From Chara braunii (lineage: Eukaryota; Plantae; Charophyceae): a stretch of DNA of 64,000 nucleotides. Below, piece by piece: positions 30,103-51,534 of this stretch; the stretch's first letter is position 1, and the number at the start of each line of letters is the position of its first letter. Made by a program: the position numbers and the translations under genes. Below the pieces are notes generated by a model, which worked only from the letters and a program-made list of their open reading frames with translations, had not been told where the DNA came from and did no database searches. The stretch lies in NCBI GenBank assembly GCA_003427395.1, contig BFEA01000007.1, forward strand, positions 6,479,957-6,543,956, given 5' to 3'.

Positions 30103-30164
30103 CCACCAAATTCCTCTCCTTCATCCTCCTTTTCGTATCCGACTCCATTGATTATTATCCGGTC

Positions 30165-31552
30165 TCAAATCTCCTCGACTTCTACCCGACCGCCCGAAGG
30201 TTCCTTCTTGGAAGAGGGCGACTCTTCTAGGCGAACCTGGCACACCAATGACTGGACTTCTCTCCTCCTTGAAACATTGGTGCGGTTCTGCTCGTCATGG
30301 GCATCCACTGTCCTTAGGACCACCTGGATTTCGTCTAAACTTTGGATCGAGAGAGTTTGGCTTCCGTCCGGAAGGTCGACCGTGGTAATGTGGACCGCGC
30401 TCAACCATGTCCGACCAAGGATCAACTCTGACAAACACTCTTTTACAGAGAAAATTGGAATGGTAGTCTCTACCCCTGCGACCTCAATCACGGGGTTGTG
30501 GCAGACCCCTTCCGCCAGTTGAAGCTTGTTATCTGCTACCGCCATTGACATGGTGATTTCCCTATCCACTTCCAGAACCAGCTTCCTCGCAATGGAATCT
30601 CTACACACCGTCGATTTCGATCCAGTATCCACTAAGGCTCTCATCTTCTTCCCACTCACCACAGCTTGGAGCTGGCCACTTCCCAGTACATAGAATCTCT
30701 TGGCCTCTTCTTCCGAGAATAAATTTGTCGGCATCTCCTCCATGGTAATTCGAGAGGCCTGCACCTCCTCCTTAGCAGGTCCTTCCCCTAGAACGGTCAG
30801 CCCTCCGGTAAGCGGAATCCTCACCTTCTTAGTAATGCTCAAGAGTTCGTCTCTGATATTTTTGCTCGCCGCTAAGTTCTCCAGAAGGGTACATTGCATT
30901 GGTTGCATTAGAGTCCTCCGCAAGGGCGCAACCATGTCTATCTCGTCCAAGGTGCACTTCATTTCGAACTTCTTTGGTCCTCTCTTCCTTGACGATTTTG
31001 GTGATGTAGGATCTTCCCCCTTTCTTTCTTTCGCGGCTTTCGAGTCGACCATCGGTTGGTCATCGTCCCCACTCCTCTTTCCCCCGTCCACTATTGTGAC
31101 CTCCTTGCCTTTGGACGGCCCGACCCCCACTTGGGTCCTTACTCTTAGGCACGGTTCCTCTTCTTCAGACTTCCTCTCTACGAACTTGATGCTAGAGACT
31201 TGCGGCTCCCTTATGGACACACCACCCTGCGATTCCGTAATTTGGACGCGGGATGAGCTGTAAGCCCCGCCGACCTCAGGCTTCTTTCCCAGGCTTGCCT
31301 CTTGTAGGGCAATCCTCTTGTCCACATTTATTTTCATCGCGGGGTAGAAGGAGACCGCCTCTCCATCATCTCCCCACACGGCCAACTTATTCTCGTTCAA
31401 CTTTACCACTCCCAACCTTGGGGCTTCCGTGAGGTGAGGACATTCCCGCTTAATGTGACCATCTTCATTACAATAGACACACCCGCTCCGAGGCGGCGGG
31501 TTGTTAGGGCGAGGCCCCACTGGTGGCGCTGCCCCTATGGCACAAGCGGTTA
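30165..31552 (-). pseudogene. gag: Gag C-terminus (CCHC knuckle) + aspartic protease
   Basis: CVYCNEDGHIKREC; ALVDTGS...LILGRTWL. Confidence 0.93.
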
Positions 31553-31998
31553 TCGGGTAGCTGAAAATTAAGGAATGAAAATTCTGAAGTGAGAGTTTTG
31601 GGCAGTCTGAGAATCCTGAATAGTCCTGAAGTGGTAAAAGGTCTTAAGACCCTGAAAACCACTTATTTAGGTAAACTGCATTCTGAAGTGGTGAAGGGTG
31701 TCCTGAAGTGGTCAAGTGAAAGTCTTGGGCAGTCCGAAAATCCTGAATGGTCCCGAAGTGGTGAAAGGTTCGAAGACCATGAAAACCACCCTTCACCATT
31801 TGAGGATGCAGCCTGCCTAAACAGGTGGTTTTCAGGGTCTTCGGAGTTTTCACCACTTCAGGACCATTCAGGATTTTCAGACCTGAATGGTCCTGAAGTA
31901 GTGAAAGGTCTGAAAACCCTGAAAACCACCTTTTTAGGCAGGTTGCATCCTGAAGTGGTGAAGGTTGTCGTGAAGTGGTGATGAAAAATACAACTGTT
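31553..31998. mobile_element. 446-bp fold-back insertion in gag with 4-bp GTTA duplication
   Basis: gtta at 31549-31552 and 31999-32002; internal direct and inverted ~120-bp units (tcctgaagtggtgaa). Confidence 0.8.
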
Positions 31999-33572
31999 GT
32001 TAACCTTCTCTCCCCTATGGTCGTCGAAGGACCGGGCGGCTGCGAAGCCCTAGCCTGGCTTACCTCCGACCGAGCCCCCGTGGCCTTGGGTTGGAGAGGG
32101 TCTCCCCACCTTCTATCTCTCACGTCCTTCCAATGGGAATTCCCCAAATTAGGGCCCCGATGTCCTCCAATTTCTCGGTCATTTCTCCAATTCCCCTGGT
32201 TTCTTGTTGGTCCTCCTCCCCAACGTGGGCTGGGGGGTCCCGGTGGCGGCCTATCGTTGTCGCGAGGACCGTCGTTCCTTTGGGTGCGTATACTTCGGAG
32301 AGCCATGTCAAGGCTTTCCTTCATGTATTCCCGGACGTCTACTCCCCCTCCCGTAAAGACGACCTCGGCGACCTTCTCAAAATTCGTCGAGTCCCTGGGC
32401 CCCTTCTCGAGGATTTCTTTCCTCTTTTCCTCGGGTAGGTGTAACATAAACATGACACACCTATCCACTTCAGACAGCATCCCCCAATCTACCAAGGCTT
32501 GGGATAGGCGCTTGAACCTTCTAGTGAAGGCCACCAAGCTCTCCTATTCCCCCCTTGATACCCGGCGTAGCCCTTCTATTGTCGGAATCAAGTCATCGCA
32601 AGCGAAGGTCCGCAGAAGGCTACTCTTGAAGGTGTTACACCTCCCATCTATCGGGTATATTACCCTAATGGCCTGATCCAGTTCGGGATCCGAGTGCTGT
32701 ATGAAGTGGTCGATCCACTCCTTTTCTGATAACTTCTTTCGGAATGCATAACTTTCTCATTTTTCGACGAACCTCGTCACATCTCGCCCATTAAAGTAGA
32801 GTGCCTCGAGGCCCAGGTGTACATCGTAGTAGGGGACTCGTCGATCGTTATATCGACAGAAGTAGGGGCCTTCCGCTGGCCCGTCTAGTACCGGATCGTA
32901 GGGCTTGTACCAAACGAGGACTAGTTCCTCCATCTGCGATCGAGCCCCCGGAGGCCCCCAGGGTTCCTCCTCGTGGCGGCCTCTATCATTTGGTTTTTCA
33001 CGTTCCCAACGCGCTGGTCCTCGGCCCCTACACCCCCTCTAGGTGTCTCTGAACCCCCCCACATTTCTCCCTATTGCTTCCTCCATCATCCATGTAGGGT
33101 TCGTTTCTCGCCCGGGTCACCTTCGCGGTCCTCCGCCAGTCTTTCTCCGTTGCTCCTCTCCCAATTCTCTCCTTCTTAAGCTCCCCTCTTCATCCCTTCT
33201 AGGTGCCCAACATCCCAGCCTTTCACGCGGGGATTTTTGCCCCTCTCCGGCTCTCTCTTCCGCGTCCTCTTGATCTGCCCATCGGGTCTCAACAAGGAAG
33301 CCCTTCGAGGCCTCTGTCGTCCTTTCTCTCACTGGTACTCGCGGCTTCACCTCCCGGTGCAGACGTTTCTCGGTACTTGTTCGCTGCCTTGCGGCTCTTT
33401 CTCCGAGAGATATTTCCGGGCTCCTTACGGCCCTACCCATCGCCTCCATCCCTTCGGTCACCCCCTCGGTTGCCTTGCTTAACCTCGCTCCCAATTCGGT
33501 ATCTTTCTCGCCTTGCCCCATGTCAGTGGTCTCAGGTGGTTGGTAGTGTCTGGGGTCCACCTCACTCTCCAT
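31999..33572 (-). pseudogene. gag: Gag N-terminal/capsid region with in-frame stops
   Basis: FNGRDVTRFVEK...ESLVAFTRRFKRLS; in frame with the 30165-31520 ORF once the 31553-31998 insertion is removed; start uncertain. Confidence 0.8.
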
Positions 33573-34434
33573 GCACCCTATTGCTAACTTCTAGTCGCCC
33601 TCCTCGCTAGTGTCACTGTCCCGTTCTTGAACTTTTTTCTTCCTGACTTGACTCTCGATTTTCACTGTCGCCTGCAAATTCCTTGCTAGTTACGGTCCAC
33701 CAAGAGTCGCGCACTCGCTTCTCCTTGCAAGCTGCTAGCGCGAGATTGCCAACCTCAAGATTGAAAATACTCCTAATGCCTTCTTGAAAACACCGTTTAA
33801 TCAACTCTCTATCCACCTCTCTGGCCTGCCCTCGAAACAAAGGTTTGATAAATTCTCTGAGTAACGCCCACCACTCGAAGTCAGTATCTTCCAGCGATTC
33901 CTAGCATCGGGTGAACAACTCGGAGCCCTTCTCCTCTCCTAGGGGGAATTTTTCAGTTACCTGCCCCCTATTTTGAACCCTCCTCACTGCTACGTCATTG
34001 GGGTAGAGCAACCGGTAGTCCCAAGTAGGGATTTCCCAGTCCGGCCGTGAGCCGCATGTGGAATCTCTAGCCTTCCCCGGTATTCGACCTGTCCTCCACA
34101 CGTTCTTCAGCGGGGCCCCCTCTCAAAATTCTAAGCCAATCCAGCGCTCTTTTGGCGATGTCCAGGGGGTCTTTTCCTTCTGCTAATTCGGTTGCGAAGA
34201 CTTGTCTGTCGTAGTGAGACAGGAAGATTTCGGCCTTCCGCGTGCGAGTACCTCTTTCGAAAACTACTGAAAACCGAACAAGCGTCTCTCACCCGTAGAT
34301 CTCAAAGAATTCGACAACAGTCTCTCCCTCCTCTCTACTCTTGGAGAGGGTTACTCCATACCTACCCCTCGACTTCAAGGCTCGTTCCAAGGTTCCGACA
34401 GGGTTCCCCCTATCATATCTAATCATTGACAATT

Positions 34435-35029
34435 TTATCTTACCTGCGCTAACCTCTCGGCCGCCTCCGCCAACGAGTCTTCAGACCTCTCTCGAGCGCC
34501 CTCGCCTTGATCGTGTATTGCTTGTTGCAGGGTTTTTTCGTACTCCTCCTCGAACTTTCTCTCGACCTCTAGCAGCGGTTCTCTTCGCGTCCTTTGGAAC
34601 CGCACCCCTCCTGCCTCACTGACAGAAATCGAGAACCTTGCTAATGTGGTCCAGGAACTCCTTTTCCACAAGGCCAATCGCCGGATTTCAACAAGGAATT
34701 ATTTTTTTGCTCGAGCCGTCTCTCCCCAAGCCCCATAGCTAGTTCCGCACCTCCTTCTACCTCGACCTCAAACCCGCCGTCCCGAGTCTCCAACTCCCAA
34801 GTTATCGAATTTGAGCTAAAGCTCGCTCTCATACCTATCTTTCTCCCGAAAGCAGCTCCTCCTTTAAATCGTTGAATATCTTAACCGTCGATGTCTCAAG
34901 GGATTTGATCCGGTGTAAAGATCCCGGTCTGGCTCTCCTTTTCTCTTCCCAGCAGAGAGTCGGGATCCTATACAATTCCGCCCTCACCCTCTCTAGGCCC
35001 ACTAGTTCTCCTTCGTCAGGTTCGCTCAT
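34435..35029 (-). pseudogene. Decayed accessory ORF(s), Glu/Leu/Arg-rich
   Basis: Chained frames 35029-34835, 34832-34641 and 34677-34435. Confidence 0.45.
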
Positions 35030-35480
35030 GCCTCAAGTTCCTTCTCCGACATGCAATAGCGACCCGAATGAGATCCGAGGGGTCTAGCCCTTCCAAGCCT
35101 GCCTCACAGATTTCCCCCAAGTATCTCCACGAGACGGACAATACCCTCACGTTTCGACCCCAGCCTTCGAATGCGTAACCGAAGTCTTCTAAGGAGGACC
35201 CATTGTTCTGATGCGGATTGTGCAAACACCAAAACAACAGGGCGTACAAGTCTGACTCGGTGAACCGAAATTGATTCAAGATTGAGACTCTACGTTCCAC
35301 CGCTCTTTTGACCGCATCGGAGGGGTAGACTCGCTCGAAGATGAAGCGGGGAACTTCCACCGGCTGGCTGGTAATAAATAGCGGCACCTCTTCCCAACCT
35401 GCGTACTCCACTCGATACACCCTTTTGTACTTCTGGCGAGGCCTCACTTCCCCGACTATGCTCTCTAGACGACGTCTCAT
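35016..35480 (-). CDS. Accessory ORF (154 aa; PxF[VI]F...C motif family)
   Basis: ATG 3 nt after the previous stop; PRFIFERV...FTESDLYALLFWCLHNP. Confidence 0.65.
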   Translation of the reverse strand: MRRRLESIVGEVRPRQKYKRVYRVEYAGWEEVPLFITSQPVEVPRFIFERVYPSDAVKRAVERRVSILNQFRFTESDLYALLFWCLHNPHQNNGSSLEDFGYAFEGWGRNVRVLSVSWRYLGEICEAGLEGLDPSDLIRVAIACRRRNLRHERT

Positions 35481-35483
35481 GGC

Positions 35484-35768
35484 TCACGCGTTTAAGAGAG
35501 GGTCCTCCCCTAACTTCAGACTTTGAATTACCTCGAGGAGTCCCTCCTTCGAGAGGAAGATCTTAGCTTCCCCGATCACTAAGCCTTTTTCAATACCCAC
35601 TGTCAATCGGACAAACGCCTTTTCCTGGCGGATTTCGGACACTTCCGTTAGAACGATTCGTGTTAGAACTTCCAAACTTGCCTTCGGTAGTGTGACGCGA
35701 ACGACCACTCCTGCCTCCTCGATAGGCTCCACCGAGGCCCAAAGGGTCCCCGGAATCCTTCTTATCAT
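35484..35768 (-). CDS. Accessory ORF (~94 aa)
   Basis: TGATG stop/start overlap at 35770-35766. Confidence 0.6.
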   Translation of the reverse strand: MIRRIPGTLWASVEPIEEAGVVVRVTLPKASLEVLTRIVLTEVSEIRQEKAFVRLTVGIEKGLVIGEAKIFLSKEGLLEVIQSLKLGEDPLLNA

Positions 35769-36031
35769 CACCTCGTCTGAGGCTCGTACCCCCTACGGTT
35801 TGTTACTTGTTCTTCCCCGAAGAGACGAGCGTAGGGGACGTCAGCGACGTGTGCCCTTACTCCTTCGAACTCTCTCAATCGCTCCAAAATCCCCAACAAT
35901 TCTCTCTCTCCCGGTATTTCCGAGTCCACACACCGGGTGTAAAGCCAGAACAAACCCAAAGTTCGGACCCCAAACCGATGGGCAGACCGGAGCACTTCTA
36001 CCACCCTCTCTTCTGAATCTCGTAGGAGTGT

Positions 36032-36412
36032 TCATGCCAAAAAGTTTGGCAGAGCCACGTGGAGTACCTTCGAGGCGTGGGGGATTTCTCCCGGTTCAGC
36101 AAACGCCACTAGTGTTGATAATTCGAAGGTGCCTTCCTCGTAACCTTTCAGGACTAAGTCGTTAGTCACCTGCCTAGCCAATTCTCGGTACCCCGTGTGT
36201 ACCTCCCGGTCGGTGACCAATCCCCTCCAGACCTCGGTCCACGAATCGTCGTCCATAAAAATTGTCGCGTGTATCTCGAGAAACCTGCCGATATGCGGCG
36301 GACTACCCCTTCGCACTCCTTCCTGCCACGTCAATCTACACGCCCTAACCCACACGTAAGCGCCCTCCTTAATTAATCCCCCCTTCTCATCACTCATACA
36401 ATAAGGTGTCAC
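36032..36412 (-). CDS. Accessory ORF, 5' end probably frameshifted
   Basis: Globular-looking 126 aa; its stop overlaps the next ATG (ATGA). Confidence 0.55.
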   Translation of the reverse strand: MTPYCMSDEKGGLIKEGAYVWVRACRLTWQEGVRRGSPPHIGRFLEIHATIFMDDDSWTEVWRGLVTDREVHTGYRELARQVTNDLVLKGYEEGTFELSTLVAFAEPGEIPHASKVLHVALPNFLA

Positions 36413-36591
36413 TCGAGGGTCCCCCGGGACCAGGATTTGGCCCCCCTCACTGGCCTCTATCGTTTCGATACCTCATTGTTGCTAAGAGCGAATCTGACCA
36501 TCTACCACGGCCGTCTGAACACCCACTCATAGTAGGTCTTCGGGGAGAGGGTAACAAACTTCTCTAGGGACCCAAGCCTCCTATAAATCCC

Positions 36592-37164
36592 CTAGAGCTT
36601 TGTTCGAGGAGGGGCCTCATGGCAGATACAATGGGTGTAAAGTAGCCACAAGGGTCTAAAAGGCAAACCCAAACTCCTCCCTCTTTCTAGGAGCCTCACT
36701 ATCTTATCCTCGTTTGATCCTAAGAACACAAAACATGGAGTCCTTACGGTCACCGGATAACCCGCCCTTGGAAGCTCACCCTCCCGCGCGAATCTTTCCG
36801 CTTTTATCGCCACAAAACAAAACTCCTTCCGAGTCATAACTATCCACCTCCTTTTTACTTCTCTCACCTCTTGGAGCAATAGATCCAGCCCACCTCCTTG
36901 GCCTAAGACCAGGTGTACCACGATCCTCGCCCAAGCGGCTGGTTCGATGAAGATTATAGCGGTGACTTTGAGGCCTGCCCCTGTCGCTTCCTTCCTCACT
37001 TCCTCTAACTCTATCCACACAAAATTTTTCCCCGTAGTGACTTCTCCACCCTCCAATTTCCTCCAATTGGGGGCCTCCCCGTTACTCGGGACCAGGCTAC
37101 AAATCCCTCGCTTGTCTAAGGGGAACTTGACAAAACGACCGAGCTCCTTGTCAAAAAGAACCAT
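36592..37164 (-). CDS. Accessory ORF (190 aa; probably extended to ~36502 before a nonsense change)
   Basis: TGA-ATG junction; PCFVFLG...FRPLWLLYTHCICHEAP. Confidence 0.65.
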   Translation of the reverse strand: MVLFDKELGRFVKFPLDKRGICSLVPSNGEAPNWRKLEGGEVTTGKNFVWIELEEVRKEATGAGLKVTAIIFIEPAAWARIVVHLVLGQGGGLDLLLQEVREVKRRWIVMTRKEFCFVAIKAERFAREGELPRAGYPVTVRTPCFVFLGSNEDKIVRLLERGRSLGLPFRPLWLLYTHCICHEAPPRTKL

Positions 37165-37521
37165 TCATGATCTCTCTCCGATTCCAAACACCCTTTGGTA
37201 ACAGTAATCTCGCCCACCTTCATGATCTCTCTCCGATTCCAAAGAGATTCTCCTGCGAATCCGGTCGACCCTAACCACATATGACACTGGGTTATTTACA
37301 CAATAGGAGAAGTACCAATGGAGTGACTGAAAAGACAGTCCCCTCCTTCTCTCCCGCCTAATGGATTTTACGACCTTCTCGTACGAGGCCCCCTCCCCAC
37401 ACACTCTCCGGAAGACAAAGGACGGAAAGATGGCTTGGACACACCCCGTAGCGCAAGGGTACTCCTTGTCCCGAGCACAAGTTACCCGCAAGCGGAGCGG
37501 CAGATGGTGCCGAAGGGGCAC
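37165..37521 (-). CDS. Small accessory ORF (PxF[VI]F...C motif family)
   Basis: PSFVFRRV...FQSLHWYFSYCVNNP; stop abuts the next ATG. Confidence 0.6.
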   Translation of the reverse strand: MPLRHHLPLRLRVTCARDKEYPCATGCVQAIFPSFVFRRVCGEGASYEKVVKSIRRERRRGLSFQSLHWYFSYCVNNPVSYVVRVDRIRRRISLESERDHEGGRDYCYQRVFGIGERS

Positions 37522-37554
37522 TTCTTCAAAAACCTATTTTAGGATAGGCCCTAC

Positions 37555-37905
37555 TCACACCTCCCAATGATCCGCCCGATACCACCCTAGTGCCCAGTGG
37601 GTGATGTATTCCACCCAGGCCTCTTGACCCAAGTAGACTGTGCCTTCCGCACGAATCGCTGTTTGTCGGGCCTTCTGCCCGTTCCTAGGTTTATTCCTGG
37701 TCTACTGATCCCCCTCCCAAATTCCCACGACGAAACGCGCCCAGAGAAAAAAACCCTTCTCGAGTTCCACACCTTTTTCGTGCCCGACTAAATATCTCTC
37801 CGTACGATGGTCCAAAGGGACGTTGAAGCACTCTCTCTCCTTGTGAAGGTCGGCCTTCTCGATTTGGATTCTACCGTCGCCAATCGCTTCTACAATCCTA
37901 ACCAT
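37555..37905 (-). pseudogene. Small accessory ORF with an internal TAG at 37704
   Basis: ATG overlaps the end of the previous ORF; the frame stays open after the single stop. Confidence 0.5.
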
Positions 37906-38273
37906 GCCCTTCCCTGGCTTTGGACCACCTCCTCAATAATCCCTACTAACACCTTCCAACCGTCCGACCCGTCGAGGTAGGCTTCCAGTATCGTTGGGGC
38001 AGGTCGCTCTCCTCGCCGAAAGGTCCGGCAACCCAGCGTATAAAAATACCGAATCCCGAAATTTCTTGAAAGTTCCCTCTTTAGCTGAGCATGACCAACC
38101 GCCTCTTCCCAGCTATCAAGGAAGTCTTCCCCTCGATCCGTCCCTTCTTCCACATTGAGTGCTAGATCAAAATCTTCGGCCCATAGATAATAGTCGTAAC
38201 ACCATACGTCCACACCCCCACGACTACCCATGATAATGCCTGTCGGCTCAACCTCGATAACTCCTAGGCTCAT
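37890..38273 (-). CDS. Small accessory ORF of unknown function (127 aa)
   Basis: ATG 7 nt after the previous stop; strong protein-level similarity to the upstream ORF. Confidence 0.75.
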   Translation of the reverse strand: MSLGVIEVEPTGIIMGSRGGVDVWCYDYYLWAEDFDLALNVEEGTDRGEDFLDSWEEAVGHAQLKRELSRNFGIRYFYTLGCRTFRRGERPAPTILEAYLDGSDGWKVLVGIIEEVVQSQGRAWLGL

Positions 38274-38280
38274 AGGCCCC

Positions 38281-38631
38281 TTACTCCCCCACTATCTCCT
38301 TTACGATCGCGACCAGCACTCTCCACCCCTTTGATCCGTCGAGATACGCGTTCGGAATTACGAGTGCGGGTCGCCCGCCCCTAGGGTAGGTCCGGTACCC
38401 CAAAGCGTAGAAGTATCTAAACCCGTACCCCCTCACCTCAGCTCTTTCTATGCGAGAGTAACCGACTGCCTCCTCCCATCCACGAAGGAAATTTTCTCCT
38501 TGATCTTGCCCTTCCTCTACGTAAATGGCAACGTCAAAATCTCCCGTCCATAGACGAAAGCTGTAGCACCACACGTCGATTCCTCCGTAGGTACTCACAC
38601 TAGTCCCTTCCGGAACCGCCTCTAGGCTTAT
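38281..38631 (-). CDS. Small accessory ORF of unknown function (paralog of 37890-38273); start codon probably mutated ATG->ATA at 38631
   Basis: GGIDVWCY...DFDVAIYVEEGQDQGENFL aligns with the neighbouring ORF. Confidence 0.7.
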   Translation of the reverse strand: MSLEAVPEGTSVSTYGGIDVWCYSFRLWTGDFDVAIYVEEGQDQGENFLRGWEEAVGYSRIERAEVRGYGFRYFYALGYRTYPRGGRPALVIPNAYLDGSKGWRVLVAIVKEIVGE

Positions 38632-40084
38632 GTGCCCATCCTAATCAAGGAAAATCTCCTTCGTTGCCTTTACTTTGGTCACTCGAGAGACCACCCCTAC
38701 CCTGCAAGGAGAAGGCACCTGAGAGCCCAGCGGGATCAAATGGACCAGAGAAGGAACGTCGTCTCACTCGGCTACCCTCCTGTCCTCCCCCGCTGAAAGG
38801 TCCTCCCACTTCCAAGCATAGAAACTAGCCGCGAACACAGGTTATCCCCGAGGAAGGGTGGCAACCCCCTCCCCGTAGTCGGACCGAAGTCACACACCAG
38901 TGCCCTATGTCCCCCACCGAACCGACCTCTAGTCCTAAGTTAGCCTATCCGGCACCACGCCCCAACTCAGCCTACCTCGAGCGTGGAATTACCCGGGTCC
39001 CATGACTTTTATCTGCCTATCGATCGATAATCACTAGCCTACCTACTCCATCTCATTCTCCTCCTTGGATCGCGAACTCTTCTCACTTTGTTCCCTTCTT
39101 TCTCTTCTCCACCGTCTGACTCTTTTCTCTCTCGGAATCCGAATATTTAATCAGGGTTTCACAAAAAAAGGGTGGGGAAGCAGAGCTTTAGCAAGAGAGT
39201 ATCTCAGGTTTGGCCACTTTAAATACGTACCTTGCAGTCTTCGACTTTTTCAGTATTCGTTCTCGTAGTCGCAGTAGTCCTCGAGATCCGAGTCCGAGAA
39301 ATCGACAAGGCACCAGTCCACTCAAGACTCGGCCTCCGATTCCTCGTCCAAGGTACCCCACGTATCTCTTCTCTCTTCTTCCCGAATTAGTTCCCTACCC
39401 CTTTCGTTCTCTACGGCGGTTGAAGTTCCCTCGACCCTTTGTCCCGGAGCCCGAAGCACTACCCTCCTCGCCCCCAAGTCCCGAACAGCACCCAAGTGAG
39501 AACTTCGCTCCCTCGCGGGAGTCGCGTCCCATGCAGGTATTGTCCACAACCCGCGTGGGTCGAGAACAGAAAACCCAGCCCCCACTTGAGAAGCTCGTTC
39601 CCTTGTAGGAGTCTCGTCCCGTGCGGGCGACGTCCACAACCCGTGCGGGTCGAGAATATTAGGAAAACCCTTTTCTCTTTGGACCAGCCCTCTTGGATCA
39701 CAAACTGATGGCGTCCCTGGGCCCCCTCGAACCCCCGTTTCCTCTCTCCTCCTAGTGTCCACTATCTCTTCCCCACGCGCGGACCCACTCACGCAATTTT
39801 CCTTGACGACTCTTCGTCCCCCTCTTTGGTTGTTTTTCACCCTCATTTAAACCCAATAAGCAAACTGTTTTACCCTCTTAATTAGTGAATTTTTAGAAAT
39901 AAATGCACAAAAAAAATCACGTTGTCGAGCGCATCGGCCCTCACGTGAAAACGAGGGCCCTCTCGGCTATGTCACGCAGGAGTGTACCTAAAAACATAAC
40001 GTTTAGAGACAACTCGGGAACGATGCATACTGTTCCGCGAACCACCGAGACGGACGCGGTTGCTTCGCTCCTTCGCCGCTCTAG

Positions 40085-40347
40085 CCGGGTGCGTCAGCTA
40101 TACATCCCACGGTCCCCTACGACAGGATAGGTTCCCGCGGGGCATAAGCTTGCATCCCTAAAGGGTTGTCACCACCCTTAGAGGCGTATCCCTACCGAGC
40201 TATTGATCCACGTGCGAAGGCTTTTAAATGCAATCGCAGAGGTAGATTAGCCGAGGGTGTTTGCTCGTCTCGCTGCAGTATAGGAATCGTTTGACTAAAC
40301 TCCGAATCAACCCGAGCGTCGTCCGTTCTCTGGGGCGCTGATCTCCC
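40085..40347 (-). ncRNA. Conserved structured RNA module B of unknown function; homologs at 20841-21110 (-) and 9501-9772 (+)
   Basis: Shared blocks GGGAGATCA, AAAAGCCTT, TAGCTC, AGGGATACGCCT, GGTGACA, CCTGTCRT, TATAGC within non-homologous flanks. Confidence 0.7.
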
Positions 40348-41166
40348 AAGTACGAAACATACGCCGGTGGACTAGGACAGTCTCAACCAAACGTGGAAAC
40401 GATCCTTAGTCCCTAGCAATCAAACAACAAAATTCTCATATTTAAAACAACATCACACAATCCAAATCGTTGACTTGATGAGTTGGTCTGCCAAAGTGTC
40501 CTTTTTCAACTTGTATGACTGACATAACTTTTTATACTGTCGTTCCAAAGATTATTAATTTAAAGAAATAAACTAAGAATGATCTTTTTATCATGACTAC
40601 TGAAACTTGTCATGAATAACTTCTTTAAATAAATATCACTGGTACCATGCAGATCAACAAGTGATCTGGTTCCTGGTCGATGTTTGAACTCCCGGTTCGA
40701 AAACGTTTCCGTACCATATACAACTACTTGGAGGAGCGAGTGACAACTTTGTTGGTTGCTTTGTCCTCCTAGACAATAATTATTATTTCTCTTGCACGAA
40801 TGATGGAGTATCCACCTCCAACACCAAGTTACGCAACGCAGAAATGTTTCATCTTCCCCTGCTTCGCTTGACAAATTTTTCAGACGTTCGCTTTTCACTT
40901 TATCCTGCTTATTTTTATGCGAACGATTACCCCTCAATGCATAAGCATGATAGTAAAATCATCGGGGTAATCCGAATACTATCCATCCGACGGTCCTAAC
41001 TACATAAGGTGTTTTGTTTTTGTTTTTAGATTACCTCGTGAAACCTTAAGTTATATGATTTCCTCAACGGGACTGAGTCTATGCGAAGTGTTTTCTGAAA
41101 TCTGAGTAAGATTTCAGAAGACGATGTCTAATCATGGTAAATCTCTCACCCGCCACGCACCTGTGC

Positions 41167-41679
41167 CTACAATAAATCCAAACGTGCGAGTTCGTCGTCG
41201 TCGAAAATCAAAGTAGACCTTCGTCCACATCGCATGACTTTCACAATCCGAGTATTATAGAAGGAGGTCATCCGAGAGGCTAGTCTCCAAACTATAACTC
41301 GGAGAGGTCGATTAAGTCCAAACAGGTGTCGAGTCTCTGTGTCCCGGATCCGGACGACGCTGAAACGCCTACCGGACGAGGTAATCTTGATACTCACAAT
41401 GACTCGAGAGAGACATTGAAGGTTACCCGCGCAGTGGAAATACAAAGTATAACCGTAAAGCTCGTCGGAAGTTCGATCCATGTTGGCTCTGAAATCTGCG
41501 CGAGTATTAGGAAAAAATCCCTCGCCACTTTGAAGCAGTCCAACGAAGACGAACCAGTCGATAGGAGATCCATCTCTTACTCGTAAAAGTCGCGCTGCAC
41601 TCCTGATGAGATCCTCCTCGGGTGTATCACGGACCAGAAGATACCTCGGGATTGTCAAGTCTCGTCGTGCTCCAGGCAT
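41167..41679 (-). CDS. Hypothetical protein (170 aa), ATG directly after a splice acceptor
   Basis: gactgatttggattcgttctgatacgcag|ATG; 23 nt after the previous stop. Confidence 0.65.
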   Translation of the reverse strand: MPGARRDLTIPRYLLVRDTPEEDLIRSAARLLRVRDGSPIDWFVFVGLLQSGEGFFPNTRADFRANMDRTSDELYGYTLYFHCAGNLQCLSRVIVSIKITSSGRRFSVVRIRDTETRHLFGLNRPLRVIVWRLASRMTSFYNTRIVKVMRCGRRSTLIFDDDELARLDLL

Positions 41680-41702
41680 CTGCGTATCAGAACGAATCCA
41701 AA

Positions 41703-42215
41703 TCAGTCACGTAAAAACTCCTCAAGTTCTTCCGCTTCATTTTCCAATTCATGATCATATAATGTTTCAGCCCCTATAATTGCGTACCTATTGGCACGTA
41801 TCCGCTCCGCGTAGTATATGCCAAAAATTGAGCCTTGTCGCTTGTTCAGCCAAAGCACGTAACGGACGAACATCAACCTTATTTCAGGGATTTCGTCCAC
41901 TCGTGTGTTGATCTCATGGGGCTGCAACACCACCAGGTTCATATTGACGAAGTGACGCTCGGGCAATGGCGGTGCGAACTCGTAATGAAGAATATCCATG
42001 CCGTTATCACTCCTGAAAACAAGTCGCCTAGGGGGTCTTTGCGCACTACCACCCCAAAATCGCGGAACGTCCTCCTCAGAATATAATTCTGACAGATTAT
42101 AAATAAGTCGGCCTATCCTTTCTACCCTCACTCTATCACGCCTTTGGAGTTCAACTCTCTCTGTTGCCGCATCACGATTGTTGAAAAGGAATAGTTTCGT
42201 GGTTCTCATAGCCAT
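41703..42215 (-). CDS. Hypothetical protein (170 aa), ATG directly after a splice acceptor
   Basis: ttctttttctttcag|ATG; intact, non-repetitive ORF. Confidence 0.65.
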   Translation of the reverse strand: MAMRTTKLFLFNNRDAATERVELQRRDRVRVERIGRLIYNLSELYSEEDVPRFWGGSAQRPPRRLVFRSDNGMDILHYEFAPPLPERHFVNMNLVVLQPHEINTRVDEIPEIRLMFVRYVLWLNKRQGSIFGIYYAERIRANRYAIIGAETLYDHELENEAEELEEFLRD

Positions 42216-44119
42216 CTGAAAGAAAAAGAAGCCAAATGTGTTTTGAGTTAAACTTTTGCCCTTGAGTATTATTCGGTTTTTGTCTTCCTTACAGCCCGTG
42301 TTTCTTATGACACGACTAACCACGTCAGGAGTATCTAACCGTACTCCGTTCAGCTAATAGGACATGAGTCAGGCTGCTTGTGACGCCAACTCTCCATACA
42401 GTAGTGGTACCTAGGATGACCACTTAAAACAGGATTGCTAAGGCAATTTTCCTTTTTCGCAAGGCATCAAGAAATAATTTTCTTCCGTGTAGATGCCTTT
42501 TCCATTACCCTAAGAGGTGGTCTGGGATACTTCTTCTCCTCGCCCGAGTATAAAACTCGGATCTCAGAAGTCGGGCCGTCTCCACCGAATCGGCATAGTA
42601 CCCCCCCGCAAGCGATCCGCAAAGCGGTCCACTCTGAGTCGATAACAGGGCCGGCCCCTAAGGCAACGAACCCCCGCCCCAGATGCCTCCTAGAAAAAAA
42701 GAAAAACACCTACACGGCAGACAAGTAAAGTCTTGCTGCATAGCGTCAAAGTAAACTTAGACGAAGAAAGAGGAATCGTAGAAAGATAGAATCATTCAGA
42801 CTGACAGGCATAGATGGAAGAGGGTTATTCGGGAAAGAATGGGTAACCTCAAGAATAAGTCTAAACCAAGTTGAACTTCTCTTCCTTATGCTCGCTTCGT
42901 TTCTCGTCGTTTTCTCTTTCTTTTATTTATACATAGAACACAAGCACAAAGATGAAAAGTCAATCATTCTTTCACCGCCATAACCCTCATCCATTTCAGT
43001 CCACATGTCGTACCTACAGTCAAAACCCAACGACACACAGACCACCATGCATTCCTTTACCATTGTCAGACTCCCAGTTATACACGCAAAAACACACATC
43101 CTCTTCCCTTTTTCAATGAACATTCAGTGAAAAACAGGTCAAAGCAAGTGTGGGTTCACTCAAGTGTGAAGGGAACTGAGTCAATTTAACTGACTGACCT
43201 TGAGTGAAATTGAAGAAACGGCCCACTCAGGAAGACCGTGTAAATCACACTCAAGAGAAGACGATCGTCACAATGACTCGCCCGCAAAACAATCCACACC
43301 ACTCCTTAGAACGATCGCTTGTCGCGACACCCTGCGTCGCCGCAGTAAAATTATCGCAGCGCTCCCGCACCACAGCTGGTTAAACCGGAGTAACCGTCGA
43401 AAGATTTCGACAGTGCTACCGCACCACTACCGAAAAACCCGGAACCGCCCCCGTAGAGAACCCGGTGGCGCTTCAGCACCACCACTGAAAAACCAGGCTT
43501 GTTGCTGCAAAAAAAAAAAAAACGGCGGCGCTTCCGCACCACCGCTGAAAAACCAGGCCTGTTCCCACAAAAAAACCGGCAGTGCTTCCGCACCACCGCT
43601 GAAAAACCAGGCGCGCCACTGCAAAAACACCGGCAGCGCTTCGGCAGCACTCTTGTACTACCACAGTAAAAGCCTGTGCCGCCGCAGCAAAATTTCGGCA
43701 GCACTTTCGTACTACCGCAGAAAAAGTCTGTGCCGCCGCAGCAAAATTTCGGTAGCACTCTCGTACTACCGCAGTAAAAGCCTGTGCCGCCTCAGCAAAA
43801 TTTCGGCAGCACTCTCGTACTACCGCAGTAAAAGTCTGTGCTGCCTGCCGTAGTACCTCAGTGCCACTGGGCCTGTCCCGTGGGACCAACACCAGTCAAA
43901 GGGGAGGGGAACAGAGTGCTCCCTGCCTTGGCTATGGCTGCCCAGTCCTCCTCCTGGTGGTCCTCTGCAGTCCTCCAGCTCCTCCTCACATTGCCTCAGC
44001 AGTCCTCCAGCTCCTCCTCACGTTGCCTCAGCAGCAGCTTCAGCAGCCACAACACTCAAGTGTGCCCGTCACACACTGGCAGCACGAGTGCTTTGTGTGG
44101 CAGCTGGGGGGCAGCTGCC

Positions 44120-44128
44120 TTTTTTATA
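44120..44128 (-). promoter_or_regulatory. TATA box candidate (second copy at 50030-50038)
   Basis: Minus strand ccaaTATAAAAAAggc in a GC-rich context, pointing toward the accessory ORFs. Confidence 0.45.
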
Positions 44129-46190
44129 TTGGCTGAAGAGAGCTAGACGTCACTCCATCCCCCAGGCAAAAACGCGGGATCACAGTGAGCCCTTGATCTG
44201 GCCTAGATTCAGGGCTGACTGTGGCCGCACCACAGCCACAGCCTTAGTGTGGGGCAGTTTCTTTAACTGCCCTATTTTCTTTTTTTTTTTCTTTTTCCCA
44301 GCTCTCTCGGAATCTGGCGAGATAGCTGGTTTCCTGCCATTTCCAAAAGTGTTTTTCTTTTATTTTTCTGATAAGGGGTTGGAAAGTTACAGTCCGTTAC
44401 AGTTTGATGTATCTGGACCCTTTTTCCAGGGCAGATACATCGGGGAAAAGGTTGTATCTAGCCTTTTCCTTAGCGGCCCTTAATTTTCCAGGCTCCCTGC
44501 AAAAACGAGAGCCTGACAGTTTCCTCTGGCAGCTTGTGCCAAAGGTAGGACCACGTGAGGACAAGTGTCCTCACAGAAAATAAAGAAAAGAAAAAGAAAA
44601 ACTAACTTTCTTATTCCTAATGAACCTGGCTTTTACCTCAGCCAGGTTCGTGTTGTTGCATGCAATAGCCTTCCCTTATTTCCCTCTGCCTTCCCCTGAA
44701 AAAGGGGCCCCTGAAAAAGGGCAGGGCAGTTGGCAGGTTGGGAGGAGTAGGACCTCCCCCTCCCAACTCCCACGTCCCTCTCTCTCATTCTCCCACGCGA
44801 GTACTGTCGGCCGTGAGATTCAAGATCTCGCGGCCACAGTGTGTTGGGCAAAAAAAAAAAATGAAGTGGGAGTTTTGTGCTCCCACACAGTCCTGAAGGA
44901 CTGTTTTTTTCCTACCATGAGGCAATTGCCTCGTTCGTTCTTTTTTTCTNNNNNNNNNNNNNNNNNNNNNNNNNNNNNNNNNNNNNNNNNNNNNNNNNNN
45001 NNNNNNNNNNNNNNNNNNNNNNNNNNNNNNNNNNNNNNNNNNNNNNNNNNNNNNNNNNNNNNNNNNNNNNNNNNNNNNNNNNNNNNNNNNNNNNNNNNNN
45101 NNNNNNNNNNNNNNNNNNNNNNNNNNNNNNNNNNNNNNNNNNNNNNNNNNNNNNNNNNNNNNNNNNNNNNNNNNNNNNNNNNNNNNNNNNNNNNNNNNNN
45201 NNNNNNNNNNNNNNNNNNNNNNNNNNNNNNNNNNNNNNNNNNNNNNNNNNNNNNNNNNNNNNNNNNNNNNNNNNNNNNNNNNNNNNNNNNNNNNNNNNNN
45301 NNNNNNNNNNNNNNNNNNNNNNNNNNNNNNNNNNNNNNNNNNNNNNNNNNNNNNNNNNNNNNNNNNNNNNNNNNNNNNNNNNNNNNNNNNNNNNNNNNNN
45401 NNNNNNNNNNNNNNNNNNNNNNNNNNNNNNNNNNNNNNNNNNNNNNNNNNNNNNNNNNNNNNNNNNNNNNNNNNNNNNNNNNNNNNNNNNNNNNNNNNNN
45501 NNNNNNNNNNNNNNNNNNNNNNNNNNNNNNNNNNNNNNNNNNNNNNNNNNNNNNNNNNNNNNNNNNNNNNNNNNNNNNNNNNNNNNNNNNNNNNNNNNNN
45601 NNNNNNNNNNNNNNNNNNNNNNNNNNNNNNNNNNNNNNNNNNNNNNNNNNNNNNNNNNNNNNNNNNNNNNNNNNNNNNNNNNNNNNNNNNNNNNNNNNNN
45701 NNNNNNNNNNNNNNNNNNNNNNNNNNNNNNNNNNNNNNNNNNNNNNNNNNNNNNNNNNNNNNNNNNNNNNNNNNNNNNNNNNNNNNNNNNNNNNNNNNNN
45801 NNNNNNNNNNNNNNNNNNNNNNNNNNNNNNNNNNNNNNNNNNNNNNNNNNNNNNNNNNNNNNNNNNNNNNNNNNNNNNNNNNNNNNNNNNNNNNAGAAAA
45901 ATTAAAAAAAAAATCCAACTTACCTCAGAAAACGGCTCGACGTTGTAGAAACGGCGCCGTTTTCTTCAGGGACTATAAGTCTCTTTTTTCTCAGTGCGCC
46001 ATCTGGCGCAGTTCGTTTTTGCTTGTTTGTTTGTTTGTTTGTTTATTTGTTTGTTTGTTTGTTTGTTTGTTTTTTAGAATTCTCGTTGGCTTATGCCAAC
46101 GATCGTGCTGTGTTCGTGGGTTCACCCACGAACTGTTGCAATGAAGACCCGAATTCGAGTCCAAATGGACTCAAAAAATAATATAAAAAA

Positions 46191-46248
46191 AAAATTGACT
46201 ATTTCTCGATTTATGCGTGTCATCCTTGCGCAGGGGCCATGCTAATCT
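46191..46248 (-). ncRNA. U6: U6 snRNA 3' half (no 5' stem-loop or ACAGAGA box)
   Basis: Minus strand reads AGATTAGCATGGCCCCTGCGCAAGGATGACACGCATAAATCGAGAAATAGTCAATTTT, the plant-type U6 3' half as I recall it, followed by a T run. Confidence 0.93.
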
Positions 46249-47647
46249 CGCGCGCGGCTGATCTCAACCGCGAGATCTTCTTGATCGGACGACCGAGATC
46301 GACCGTGCCCGAAAGACTGGGTTGCTCCAAAAGGACCTAGCCCGGTAGTTACAGTTTCTCAGATTCGATCCTGGTGTCTGCTGGGTGGTAGTCGGGTGAC
46401 GTAACCTACTGGGCTAGCTCTTGTTTCACACTAAACAGGAGCAGCTCTTCAATATGAAGAGCTAGCCCAGCTGATTCTCCTGCCTGCGGCCTTGCAGGCT
46501 CCTCCTGTATGTGGCCTAGCAGGCCTGCCCAGGCTGTGGCCTAGCAGGGCTGCCCAGCCTGTGGCCTGCCGGCATTCCTGCCCGTGGCCTACCCATACCA
46601 GTTAGCCGCGTGATCGCGGCTTGGTCGGCCATCGAACCGGGTAAGCCTTGGCATTGGCCTATCGGCCCCAAGGCTCGACGTCAAACCCCGCGGCCTGTGC
46701 CGCGGCCTTATACCCCGCGCAACCGTCTTTTTAGCCCACTTAAGTCCTGAATCGCGCGGCTGCTACTAGGTGTAACTCTAGTCTTTCCATGACTGCACGC
46801 TACTGCGGTCTCGTCGAAAAACCCGTGGATGACAGTGTTGACTTTCGCTATCCCGTGCGGACGTCGATGTCGTCTTGCGTTGACGACGTAAGGTTCTAAA
46901 AGGTTTAGGTTTCTCAGTCATAGCGCTGGTCTAAATAAACGTTTGGCAAACATCAGTCTCATCAAGTCCTTCAATTCAACGCAAGAGTCGGACAACGTCC
47001 CACGTTCAAAAACACCGGCAAATAACCTTGTCAGGGTTTTTGCCTCGACAGCAATCCCAAACCCCATTGAACGACGTCCTCGTCGTTCACCCTATATTAG
47101 TCAACAATACAGGGCTCTCTGGATTCTTATGGAACTCTTTTCAACAAAATTTCTTTCAATCGAAAATAAGTCGAAGCTTATAACCAAAATCCGAGTTATT
47201 GCCTCGGTAATCTGAAATTCAATCATCCTTAATTGGAATGGTACCAGATGTAGCCTCTAGCAAGCCTTTCACCAAAACCTGAATTTATACCGGTTTCAAG
47301 TTCCGGAATTACTAAAATATTCGGAAACTTTGTCTAAATGGTCCCAGCATCATCCCACTGGTGGCAAATCTAAACATTATTTTAGTCTCTCAGAATGGTA
47401 CTGGAAATAGCCTCCGGCTAGCCTTCTAAACCTCAGTTGGCTAATATTTACATTTATCTAAGAGATCAGGTTTAACCCCCTGACGGGTATTTCAAAATAA
47501 ATAACCTTCTGAGCGGCCCAGACAGAATCTGAACCAACCATTCATGAGAAAAATCATTTATCAAAATTCCTTGTTCAGGTTTTGTATCCCATTCCAATTA
47601 CGAGTTATCACATATGACATTTTTCCTGCATGCTTTGTGATATGCGT

Positions 47648-48036
47648 TGAGTAGTGGTGTAATCCTCAAGGGATAACATCTCGACTTCGAGCCCCGCTTT
47701 AGACTCGAGCCTCACCACCTTCCCTTCGATTTCAGTATCATGTGTTTGCCAGTCCTCTACCTGCAAGGTTGAACTACCCTTTCTCTATGACCTAGGCTGA
47801 TCAGACCCGGGCATAAAGGCGAGGCGACCCCATTCGTCACAAGGTCAAGGTGACCACTCTTTTCCCCATGACGAGCGGCAGTCATCACCCTCACAAGCAA
47901 GATTCCGACAATCACAATAATAACATCCTCCCTTTCAATGATAGTGTAGCCACCTTCCTTAAAAAAAAAAAAAAAGTGACAGCATCCCACTATAGACCAG
48001 GAACTGAGTTCCGGCGTAGGCCTCACTACCACCTAC
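47648..48036 (-). ncRNA. Conserved module C of unknown function; homolog at ~16815-17208
   Basis: Shared blocks gataacatctc, gagcctcaccac, atgatagtgtag, gttccggcgt, taccacctac. Confidence 0.6.
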
Positions 48037-50833
48037 AGAGCTCACTACATCAGGACTCATCATAACATGTTTTGTGAATAACTCATAGTTATGCCACAAG
48101 CCATATAATGCAAATTACATATAATTTTCCTAGAACTTTTTTTTTTTTTACAACGAGAATATACATCAAATAACAACATACATTTTCACAGAGAGTTTCA
48201 TAACATTCCAGTCAAAAAATATTCATTAATTTGCATTGCATCACATTTCATCGAAAAAAGTAACAAGAAATCATTCAAATTTAGGAATCAACAAATTTTC
48301 GATCCAAAATCACAACATAATTCCACCGAATCGGCATAGTACCCCCCCAAAAAGCGGTCCACTCTGAGTCGATAACAGGGCCGGCCCCTAAGGCAACGAA
48401 CCCCCGCCCCAGATGCTTCCCAGAAAAAAAGGAAAACACCTACACGGCAGACAAGTAAAGTCTTGCCGCGTAGCGTCAAAGTAAACTTAGACGAAGAAAG
48501 AGGAATCGTAGAAAGATAGAATCATTCAGACTGACAGGCATAGATGGAAGAGGGTTATTCAGGAAAGAATGGGTAACCTCAAGAATAAGTCTAAACCAAG
48601 TTGAACTTCTCTTCCTTATGCTCGCTTCGTTTCTCGTCGTTTTCTCTTTCTTTTATNNNNNNNNNNNNNNNNNNNNNNNNNNNNNNNNNNNNNNNNNNNN
48701 NNNNNNNNNNNNNNNNNNNNNNNNNNNNNNNNNNNNNNNNNNNNNNNNNNNNNNNNNNNNNNNNNNNNNNNNNNNNNNNNNNNNNNNNNNNNNNNNNNNN
48801 NNNNNNNNNNNNNNNNNNNNNNNNNNNNNNNNNNNNNNNNNNNNNNNNNNNNNNNNNAAAAGTCAATCATTCTTTCACCGCCATAACCCTCATCCATTTC
48901 AGTCCACATGTCGTACGTGCAGTCAAAACCCAACGACACACAGACCACCATGCATTCCTTTACCATTGTCAGACTCCCAGTCATACATGCAAGAACACAC
49001 ATCCTCTTCCCTTTTTCAATGAACATTCAGTGAAAAACAGGTCAAAGCAAGTGTGGGTTCACTCAGGTGTGAAGGGAACAGAGTCAATTTAACTGACTGA
49101 CCTTGAGTGAAATTGAAGAAACGGCCCACTCAGGAAGACCGTGCAAATCACACTCAAGAGAAGAAGATCGTCACAATGAGTCGTCCGAAAAACAATTCAC
49201 ACCACTCCTTAGAACGATCGCTTGTTGTGACACCCTGCGTCGCCGCCGTAAAATTATCGCAGCGCTCCCGCACCACAGCAGGTTAAACCGGAGTCACCGT
49301 CGAAAGATTTCGACAGCGCTACCGCACCACTGCCGAAAAACCCGGAACTGCCGCCGTAGAAAACCCGGAGGCGCTTCCGCACCACCACTGAAAAACCAGG
49401 CCTGCTTCCGCACCACCGCTGAAAAACCAGGCCTGCTGCCACAAAAAAACCGGCAACGCTTCCGCACCACTGCTGAAAAACCTGCCCTGCCGCCGCAAAA
49501 AAAACGGCAACACTTCCGCACCACCGCTGAAAAAACCCGTGCCGCCGCAAATGTCGGCAGCACTCTCGTACTACCACAGTAAAAGTCTGTGCCGCCGCAG
49601 CAAAATTTCGGCAACACTTTCATACTACCGCAGAAAAAGTCTGTGCCGCCGCAGCAAAATTTCGGCAGCACTCTTGTACTACCGCACTATAAGTCTGTGC
49701 CGCCGCAACAAAATTTCGGCAACACTCTCGTACTACCGCAGTAAAAGTCTGTGCCGCATGCCGTAGTACCGCAGTGTCACTGGGCCTGTCCCGTGGGACC
49801 AACACCAGCCAAAGGGGAGGGGAGCAGAGCGCTCCCTGCCTTGGCTATGGCTGCCCAGTCCTCCTCCCGGTGCTCCTCTGCACTCCTCCAGCTCCTCCTC
49901 ACGTTGCCTCAGCAGTCCTACTACTCCTCACGTTGCCTCAGTAGTAGCTCCAGCAGCCACAACACTCAAGTGTGTCCGTCACACACTGGCAGCACGAGTG
50001 CTTTGTGTGGCAGCTGGGGGGCAGCTGCCTTTTTTATATTGGTTAAAGAGAGTTGGACGTCACTCCAGCCTCCAGGCAAAAACGCGGGTTCACAGTGAGC
50101 CCTTGATCCAGGGCTGACTGTGGCCGCACCACAGCCACAGCCTTAGTGTGGGGCGGTTTCTTTAACTGCCCTATTTTTTCTTTTCTTTTCTTTTTCCCAG
50201 CTATCTCGAAAGCTGGCGAGATAGCTGGTCTCCTGTCATTTCCAAAAGTGTTTTTCTTTTATTTTTCTGATAAGGGGTTGGAAAGTTACAGCCCCTTACA
50301 GTTTGATGTATCTGGACCCTTTTTCCAGGGCAGATACATCGGGGAAAAGGTTGTATCTAGCCTTTTCCTTAGCGGCCTTTAATTTTCCAGGCTCCCTGCA
50401 AAAACGAGAGCCTGACAGTTTCCTCTCGCAGCTTGTGCCAGAGGTAGCACCACGTGAGGACAAGTGTCCTCACAGAAAATAAAGAAAAGAGAAAGAAAAA
50501 CTAACTTTCTAATTCCTAATGAACCTGGCTTTTACCTCAGCCAGGTTCGTGTTGTTGCATGCAACAGCCTTTCCTTATTTCCCTCTGCCTTCCCCTGAAA
50601 AAGGGGAGGGCAGTTGGCAGGTTGAGAGGAGTAGGACCTCCCCCTCCCAACTCCCACGTCCCTCTCTTTCATTCTCCCACGCGAGTACAGTCGGCGTGAG
50701 ATTCAAGATCTCGCGGCCACAGTGTGTTGGGCAAATAAAAAAAACAAAGTGGGAGTTTTGTGCTCCCACACAGTCCCAAAGGACTGTTCTTTTCCTACCA
50801 CGAGGCAATTGCCTCGTTCGTTCTCTTTTTCTA

Positions 50834-50899
<66 letters not shown>

Positions 50900-51216: not shown

Positions 51217-51282
<66 letters not shown>

Positions 51283-51466: not shown

Positions 51467-51534
<68 letters not shown>

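Follow-up and report, generated by a model that had tools for sequence, protein, structure and literature searches.

Why should a non-coding sequence of a few hundred nucleotides (nt) stay conserved in repeats that otherwise cannot be aligned with one another? The question is raised by a 64,000-nt stretch of the Chara braunii contig BFEA01000007.1 (the window, within which all positions are counted), where a sequence of ~330-400 nt, here called module B, occurs three times without coding capacity. Module B is real, a structured RNA of Chara-type retroelements that is both strongly conserved and uncatalogued: it is conserved between flanks that do not align, it shares no reading frame, it is carried by many repeat families, and it occurs in a multi-copy repeat devoid of long open reading frames (ORFs). 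As to its role, we give a probability of roughly 0.45 to a cis-acting export or packaging element on the genomic RNA, whose fold would be read by Gag or an accessory protein and would gate its own site for the U1 small nuclear ribonucleoprotein (snRNP).

A conserved module in otherwise unalignable repeats

The three copies, named for their positions, are as follows.

39955-40347, minus strand: 40k copy, extended, with a 57-nt lineage-specific insert in the loop closed by helix P5 (see below)
20783-21110, minus strand: 21k copy, within an ORF-less multi-copy repeat
9501-9830, plus strand: 9k copy, of the 21k lineage, cut off shortly downstream

All three were found at the positions and on the strands given in an initial annotation of this DNA, and a profile built from them detected no fourth copy in the window. 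That annotation described the 40k copy as strongly diverged with unrelated flanks, and the alignments agree: its global identity is 68.1% to the 21k copy and 69.5% to the 9k copy, vs 50.4 +/- 2.0% in the shuffled control, but falls to chance level in the 270 nt on either side (51.9% upstream, 48.9% downstream). Because the 21k and 9k copies are parts of one 1.19-kb repeat, with equal identity in module (91.5%) and flank (91.1%), the copies represent two lineages rather than three. The 5' homology boundary is sharp, and of the ~270-nt extent originally proposed the 5' end stands; the 3' boundary was set too short, as a further conserved block (39962-39981, 20790-20809 and 9804-9823 in the respective copies) belongs to the module, and helix P5 lengthens the 40k module by ~125 nt.

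A shared reading frame is ruled out as the cause of this conservation because all 18 frames across the copies contain stops and the alignment has gaps of 1 and 2 nt, and the earlier proposal of a conserved structured RNA that no reading frame explains is supported. Fold z-scores are -2.35, -2.82 and -2.14 on the annotated strand vs -0.03, -1.54 and -2.07 on the opposite strand; the strand preference is clear for the 40k copy only. Conservation peaks around and after a splice-donor motif, described below.

To gauge how widely the module is shared, DNA contigs of run X1 were aligned to each lineage at 80% likeness and their depth was summed over 30 bins, the sums not being copy numbers. Along the 40k lineage the sum reaches 161,567 at 40098-40243; the two neighbouring bins hold 28,881 and 13,939 and each of the remaining 27 holds 153-6,400, so that depth on module B is at least 25 times that of the element's other bins. 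Along the 21k lineage it peaks at 31,569 (20872-21049), flanked by 8,516 and 6,641; a pair of bins lying further upstream holds 4,200 and 8,516, and each of the other 25 holds 83-1,174. Run X5 likewise peaks on the module, at a depth of 13.5-14.3. These depths show that many more sequences carry module B than carry either host repeat; the module is common to many repeat families that are otherwise unalignable. As a separate observation, the segment 21584-21920 (minus strand), 500-800 nt upstream of the 21k copy, combines raised DNA depth (4,200-8,516) with some RNA.

RNA runs were placed on both lineages (three on the 40k lineage, two on the 21k lineage), with 6-13% of each run read and at low depth. 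Reads peak on module B in both directions (X7, 61 and 101; X8, 8.9 and 5.5; X6, 4.8 and 0.8), and their enrichment over the flanks does not exceed that of DNA. Among the joints listed from these low-coverage runs there was no RNA joint at the donor, nor was there a pile-up of RNA starts or ends; one four-read X7 joint, at 40060-40175, is not GT-AG.

The Rfam scan suggested by the initial annotation gave no usable match to the module: the 40k copy had none to E 10, and the 9k copy only a chance-level match to snoR9 (15.3 bits vs a gathering threshold of 90). Elsewhere in the window the scan found U6 and three type III hammerheads, the latter near simple repeats (gathering threshold 48.5 bits).

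51600-51654, plus strand: type III hammerhead, 58.1 bits
51762-51815, plus strand: type III hammerhead, 48.2 bits
13598-13653, minus strand: type III hammerhead, 45.8 bits

Searches for homologs in viral, metagenome and prokaryote contigs returned 32 pattern loci (0, 0 and 4 in viral_contigs, 11 in metagenome_contigs and 17 in genome_contigs), none of which fits the full profile beyond the pattern and which we judge to be chance matches. These blanks carry little weight because every pattern was exact and derived from a handful of copies; one viral_contigs pattern misses the majority letter at 40182. Literature titles and abstract openings contained no description of the module B RNA, although an account of the elements may exist in the Chara genome paper or its supplements.

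Predicted fold and splice-donor motif

The fold was modelled with RNAalifold and by inspection. The resulting 11-helix model pairs 93.9% of 262 cells, and 12 of its 89 pairs have changed on both sides among the three rows, vs 4.7 +/- 1.5 in shuffles (none of 500 as high) and 0-2 in slid controls; because the model was derived from these same three rows of two lineages, the count is to be read as support and not as a probability. From 5' to 3' the predicted order is hairpin P1, a three-way-junction domain H1, hairpin C, a linker, hairpin D and the long-range helix P5. The elements are listed for the 40k copy, followed by the donor motif of the other copies.

40298-40339, minus strand: hairpin P1 (5'), helices 1-2, no two-sided change; its apical part aligns poorly in the 40k copy
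40185-40289, minus strand: central domain H1, helices 3-7, with two inner arms and a predicted three-way junction; five two-sided pairs
40155-40183, minus strand: hairpin C, a 9-11-bp stem of variable length with a GUGA tetraloop in the 40k copy
40146-40156, minus strand: position of the 5'-splice-site motif, decayed here and AG/GURAGU in the other copies and most listed relatives
40097-40148, minus strand: hairpin D, helix 9, predicted, with the conserved apex CCU-GUCRU-RGG; two two-sided changes
40082-40089, minus strand: 5' arm of P5, helix 11
39962-39980, minus strand: conserved block, of which 39970-39980 is predicted to kiss the hairpin D apex and 39962-39969 is the 3' arm of P5
20907-20915, minus strand: donor motif GAG/GUGAGU of the 21k copy
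9698-9706, plus strand: donor motif GAG/GUGAGU of the 9k copy

The best single support for the fold comes from P5, which closes the variable loop and has undergone four consecutive two-sided changes; its duplex energy is -6.7 to -10.9 kcal/mol with a copy's own arms and -1.1 to -3.7 kcal/mol when arms are swapped across lineages. Just inside P5 lies a block complementary to the hairpin D apex UGUCRU-RGG (9 of 9 pairs in all three copies, ~-8.5 kcal/mol), and the two are predicted to form a kissing contact. Domain H1 contains the invariant blocks CUACCUCU and GGGAUACG. Letter changes drawn from >1,200 rows per lineage, mostly not displayed, are partly independent of the model: 12 frequent, unphased changes are listed inside the module, four at unpaired sites and eight in modelled pairs, where three repair a broken pair, three turn a G-U into a Watson-Crick pair, two do the reverse and none breaks a pair. 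Weighing against the model, 6 of the 17 pairs of hairpin D depart in one copy, and two loose ends carry a letter in the 3' strand of H1 that mismatches unless its partner has also changed.

Hairpin C corresponds to the stem quoted in the initial annotation, whose changed arms (cuaccugaggg...cccuuggguag vs cucuaaggg...cccuuuaggg) are present and do pair; the GGUGACA given there as a 7-nt loop is modelled instead as a tetraloop closed by two pairs. Its apex is of GNRA type in the window copies and in two listed variants. Relatives seen in the loose ends have GAGA, GUAA and once UUUC, on stems that differ in length and sequence, and the AAAAGCC block likewise varies among them. A PTE-like G-bulge was rejected by inspection. 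Neither P5 nor the splice-donor motif is mentioned in the initial annotation.

The donor motif directly follows hairpin C and reads RAG/GUAAGU in loose ends of runs X1, X6, X7 and X8; for AGGTRAGT the expectation is 0.026 occurrences per 270 nt of the window. Its last three bases could pair within the base of hairpin D. The motif might also pair with the CUACCUC block, at -8.0 kcal/mol for the 21k and 9k copies and -2.7 for the 40k copy with its decayed motif, but a two-sided change favours the local helix 6 instead. A splice-donor motif is present and conserved among the conserved hairpins; its use in splicing was not seen in the RNA runs. A small intron running from the donor into the P5 loop was considered and rejected, its acceptor not being conserved in the loose ends.

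Host repeats and the role of the module

The 40k copy is part of a >32-kb Ty3/gypsy element that runs along the minus strand and is bounded by long terminal repeats (LTRs). The 21k copy lies in a distinct repeat into which this big element has inserted, and the two share a second module, here called A.

53570-54550, minus strand: 5' LTR of the big element, aligned part (LTR copy 53806-54550), with a 216-nt tandem duplication
47643-48036, minus strand: second shared module (A), non-coding, ~400 nt, copy in the big element
41703-42215, minus strand: upstream ORF U1, 170 aa, directly behind a pyrimidine tract and CAG that resemble an acceptor
41167-41679, minus strand: upstream ORF U2, 170 aa, no Pfam family
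32757-39846, minus strand: chain of small ORFs with coupled stop/start junctions, parts of which match other Chara proteins at 26-67%
31644-32543, minus strand: likely gag, by position only, no Pfam family
26685-31643, minus strand: broken pol, with protease, reverse transcriptase, RNase H and integrase in Ty3/gypsy order
21927-22670, minus strand: 3' LTR of the big element, aligned part, ending TGACA and inserted into the repeat of the 21k copy
14200-21926, minus strand: multi-copy repeat without long ORFs, holding module B and the second shared module
16812-17207, minus strand: second shared module (A), copy in the ORF-less repeat, 66% identical to that in the big element

The order of protease, reverse transcriptase, RNase H and integrase between LTRs, together with TGGCGCC at 53586 following the 5' LTR, which we take to be a motif resembling a primer-binding site (PBS), identifies the host element as a Ty3/gypsy LTR retrotransposon. 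A downstream TGACA was rejected as an LTR end, no PBS following it. Named Chara braunii proteins account for 29 of 31 relatives of its reverse transcriptase, and an alignment-based search with the latter yielded nothing related in viral_contigs. For Chara, giant gypsy elements that carry additional ORFs have reportedly been described. Protein searches found no homologs of U1 or of the ORF at 36595-37164, and in Atlas U1 had matches at 0.88-0.90 only, which are not usable. Some 110 nt, containing a single 5-codon ORF, separate the end of the 40k copy from the first long ORF of the chain that opens with an AUG (39846). Coupled junctions in the chain number 10, whereas a Markov null gives 2.5 +/- 1.6 and reaches that count in 1 of 500 cases, and the other strand has none; a cruder junction count gave no excess (7 of 23 long frames vs a background of 23%).

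Several further features of the big element were observed. Repeat copies of 4.5-4.8 kb (42581-47050 and 48322-53111) are seemingly inserted in its leader, and inside them lie 3' halves of U6 small nuclear RNA with T tails (46188-46249 and 52237-52298, minus strand). A 60-nt piece at 40748-40811 is matched by RNA reads of X6, X7 and X8, mostly in one direction, whose flanks are unrelated; it was possibly captured from an expressed sequence. A donor-like site at 32064 in the likely gag and an acceptor-like site at 31561 just past the gag stop (both minus strand) could delimit a gag-pol intron, one that is not in frame in this decayed copy. Sequence starting with TGTC interrupts the 5' LTR from 54551 onward (plus strand), and beyond that point lie long tandem arrays of 91-nt and 92-nt units (58698-60261 and 60455-63644).

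In the repeat of the 21k copy, the longest sense frame between 14.2 and 21.9 kb is 107 codons, with no coupled junction and no match to Chara pol proteins. Over the 6.5 kb downstream of the 21k copy, open frames reach at most 107 codons, and ORFs with an ATG at most 28 codons among the first 14 listed. The sequence is multi-copy throughout 16.6-21.9 kb, and because its ends were not found the repeat can be called only presumably non-autonomous. Modules A and B occur in opposite order in the two hosts, A then B in the big element and B then A in the ORF-less repeat, and a fold predicted for module A from its two rows has 19 of 110 pairs changed on both sides. Other observations in this repeat include a lone copy of module B's 5' motif, GGGAGATCAGC, at 17288-17298 (minus strand), ~90 nt ahead of module A; small hairpins at 19430-19450 and 20030-20055 (minus strand) that begin GGGATACTC, resembling the GGGATACGC block of module B; and raised DNA contig depth at 19270-19625. 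Two short motifs recur between the big element's leader and this repeat (53275-53288/15633-15646 and 47071-47079/14809-14817, minus strand), each weak alone (BLAST E 0.14).

A cis-acting export or packaging signal is favoured on three grounds: no long ORF lies downstream of the 21k copy, the opposite order of the modules suits signals that work independently of position, and export and packaging signals are the parts that ORF-less derivatives usually retain. The packaging/export signal that the initial annotation listed as an alternative accordingly fits better than the internal ribosome entry site (IRES) that it put first. The module is also built as expected of an export element: its conserved structure spans several hundred nt of a retroelement RNA and includes long-range contacts, of which helix P5 is supported and the kissing contact predicted. 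Beyond conservation and folding, we infer a mechanism in which the fold would steer full-length element RNA in cis to export and packaging, bound by Gag or by an element-encoded Rev- or CERV-like protein, for which the products of U1 and U2 are candidates. Exposure of the donor to the U1 snRNP would lead to spliced or retained RNA, and its concealment by pairing, with either the base of hairpin D or the CUACCUC block, would yield RNA that stays unspliced and is exported and packaged. Module B would then persist in ORF-less derivatives because their mobilisation needs it.

A number of points weigh against this reading. Some concern the donor: the RNA loose ends listed cross it unspliced and show no joint there, one X5 contig has GUAAUG instead of GURAGU, and no strong acceptor was found between module B and 36.7 kb. 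Others concern the fold, in that its covariation count comes from two lineages, the extended 40k copy folds at a z-score of only -1.47, folds of minimum free energy computed from single sequences do not all recover the model, and the kissing contact has four one-sided and no two-sided changes and competes with a local hairpin. Additionally, coding parts of the 21k repeat, whose ends were not found, could lie outside the intact stretch, and the module is far both from the PBS, unlike retroviral psi, and from the 3' LTR, unlike the MTE export element discussed below.

An IRES or ribosome-loading platform, feeding the coupled ORF chain and gag-pol by termination-reinitiation and present in ORF-less copies by descent or recent capture, is kept in play by that chain, yet we consider it unlikely. 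The 40k copy does lie between two upstream ORFs on the side of the cap and the chain and gag on the other, as initially described, a placement that does not extend to the 21k and 9k copies; and its size, modelled GNRA loop and possible pseudoknot recall viral IRES features (PMC12656792). An IRES must, however, precede an ORF, and no long one follows the 21k copy; a stop follows the 3' strand of the modelled pseudoknot at codon 1 (40k) or codon 3 (21k and 9k); no Rfam family matches and the model has no apical GGG loop; the viral-like motifs cited for the module vary among relatives; and coupled ORFs can be read without a cis element, as with TAV of cauliflower mosaic virus (PMC5902531). The IRES-like character first suggested is weakly supported, through the position of the 40k copy, its modelled GNRA loop and its possible pseudoknot. 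A shade less probable again is a new class of retrotransposon RNA switch, in which one fold, common to very many Chara elements, would load ribosomes at the coupled chain of at least ten ORFs and would expose or hide the U1 snRNP site, deciding between translation and packaging; if true, polycistronic translation in a nuclear retroelement of a green plant would be gated by a structured RNA. The coupled chain in any case makes polycistronic translation in such an element testable, coupling implying reinitiation.

The donor could alternatively mark module B as the structured first exon of a subgenomic RNA, a reading that we regard as improbable; transcription would begin close to the 5' GGGAGA, and the donor would be joined to acceptors preceding the gag, pol or accessory ORFs. 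A near-consensus donor at a fixed place, the sharp 5' homology boundary and the acceptor-like sites at 42216 and 31561 speak for it, and Ogre and EVADE elements are stated to use splicing (PMC12786077); however, the three and two low-depth RNA runs contain neither an RNA joint nor a pile-up of starts or ends, the strongest conservation falls at and beyond the donor, within the would-be intron, and the loose ends show no conserved acceptor in the P5 loop. Little credence attaches to a captured host non-coding RNA gene, an RNA polymerase III-type unit or an independent small mobile unit that inserts into elements. Coverage far deeper than that of either host repeat would suit such a unit, as would an A-box-like stretch inside the module and, in the 21k and 9k copies, a stretch resembling a B box, both recognised by eye from the customary box consensus. 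The B-box-like stretch is absent from the 40k copy, though, neither Rfam nor ARAGORN returned a match, no tail or target-site duplication was seen, and RNA is enriched no more than DNA, with reads in both directions. Marginally less credible still is a new self-cleaving or self-splicing ribozyme or a catalytic relic of an intron: the complex fold, tetraloop, possible tertiary contact and invariant unpaired blocks would fit, but Rfam places its three hammerheads outside module B, the RNA runs show no pile-up of ends, and by inspection the model has no nesting of the P3/P7 or hepatitis delta virus (HDV) type. Group I, group II and HDV-like topologies were rejected on the same inspection.

Comparison with known systems

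Viral IRESs of the intergenic region (IGR), type IV and type I/II classes measure 300-400 nt, as does module B, and differ from it in that its second lineage sits in an ORF-less context. The dicistrovirus IGR IRES sits between two ORFs, as only the 40k copy does, and has an open frame right after its tRNA-mimicking pseudoknot, where module B has a stop within 1-3 codons. It is built from three nested pseudoknots, PKI-PKIII (PMC12656792), vs one candidate kissing pseudoknot in our model. Type IV IRESs, typified by hepatitis C virus, are compact structures of ~300 nt with a pseudoknot, which the size of module B and its predicted pseudoknot would fit; however, their apical IIId loop pairs with the CCC triplet of 18S rRNA and an AUG lies just downstream, whereas the module B model has no apical GGG loop and the first AUGs past it open ORFs of 5-14 codons. 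The GNRA tetraloop that is essential in type I/II picornavirus IRESs may have a counterpart in hairpin C, whose modelled apex is GNRA in the window copies and two listed variants and UUUC in one.

Closer parallels come from retroelements. LARD elements are ORF-less, multi-copy and marked by conserved internal blocks, as is the 21k repeat, and conserved internal RNA structure is reportedly a feature of theirs; for the ORF-less repeat, neither LTRs nor a PBS turned up in the window, and module B is, unlike LARD blocks, shared with an autonomous element. The 5' leader of retroviruses such as HIV-1 and murine leukaemia virus (MLV) holds the major splice donor and psi among conserved hairpins, with a GNRA-type loop and pairings that hide the donor. 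Module B resembles it in its donor motif between predicted hairpins, its GNRA-type loop and its possible donor-hiding pairings, but the leader lies directly downstream of the PBS, whereas module B is ~13 kb from the PBS-like motif (40347 to 53586), or ~4 kb without the two inferred insertions, and has no conserved palindromic dimerisation loop. For Cer1 of C. elegans, likewise of Ty3/gypsy type, an extra protein, CERV, made from a spliced mRNA is needed for export of the genomic RNA; no response element is mentioned in the available part of the source (PMC10309623), and U1 and U2 have no detectable protein homology.

RNA export of plant LTR retrotransposons has, according to one review, not been studied directly, and it is uncertain whether such elements carry export motifs at all (PMC12786077). 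Module B would offer a concrete candidate export signal in the lineage of the closest algal relatives, with many natural variants from which to solve its structure. It has no sequence match to the export elements MTE, RRE, CTE, RTE and MLV PTE, and differs from them in holding a donor motif. The MTE adjoins the 3' LTR of a mouse element, whereas module B lies upstream of the ORF chain and gag of an algal Ty3/gypsy element. In architecture the two are nevertheless alike: the MTE is a non-coding segment of ~400 nt in an LTR retroelement, in which numerous stem-loops are combined with a pseudoknot and a kissing contact (PMC4588558, PMC3362945), as is predicted for module B.
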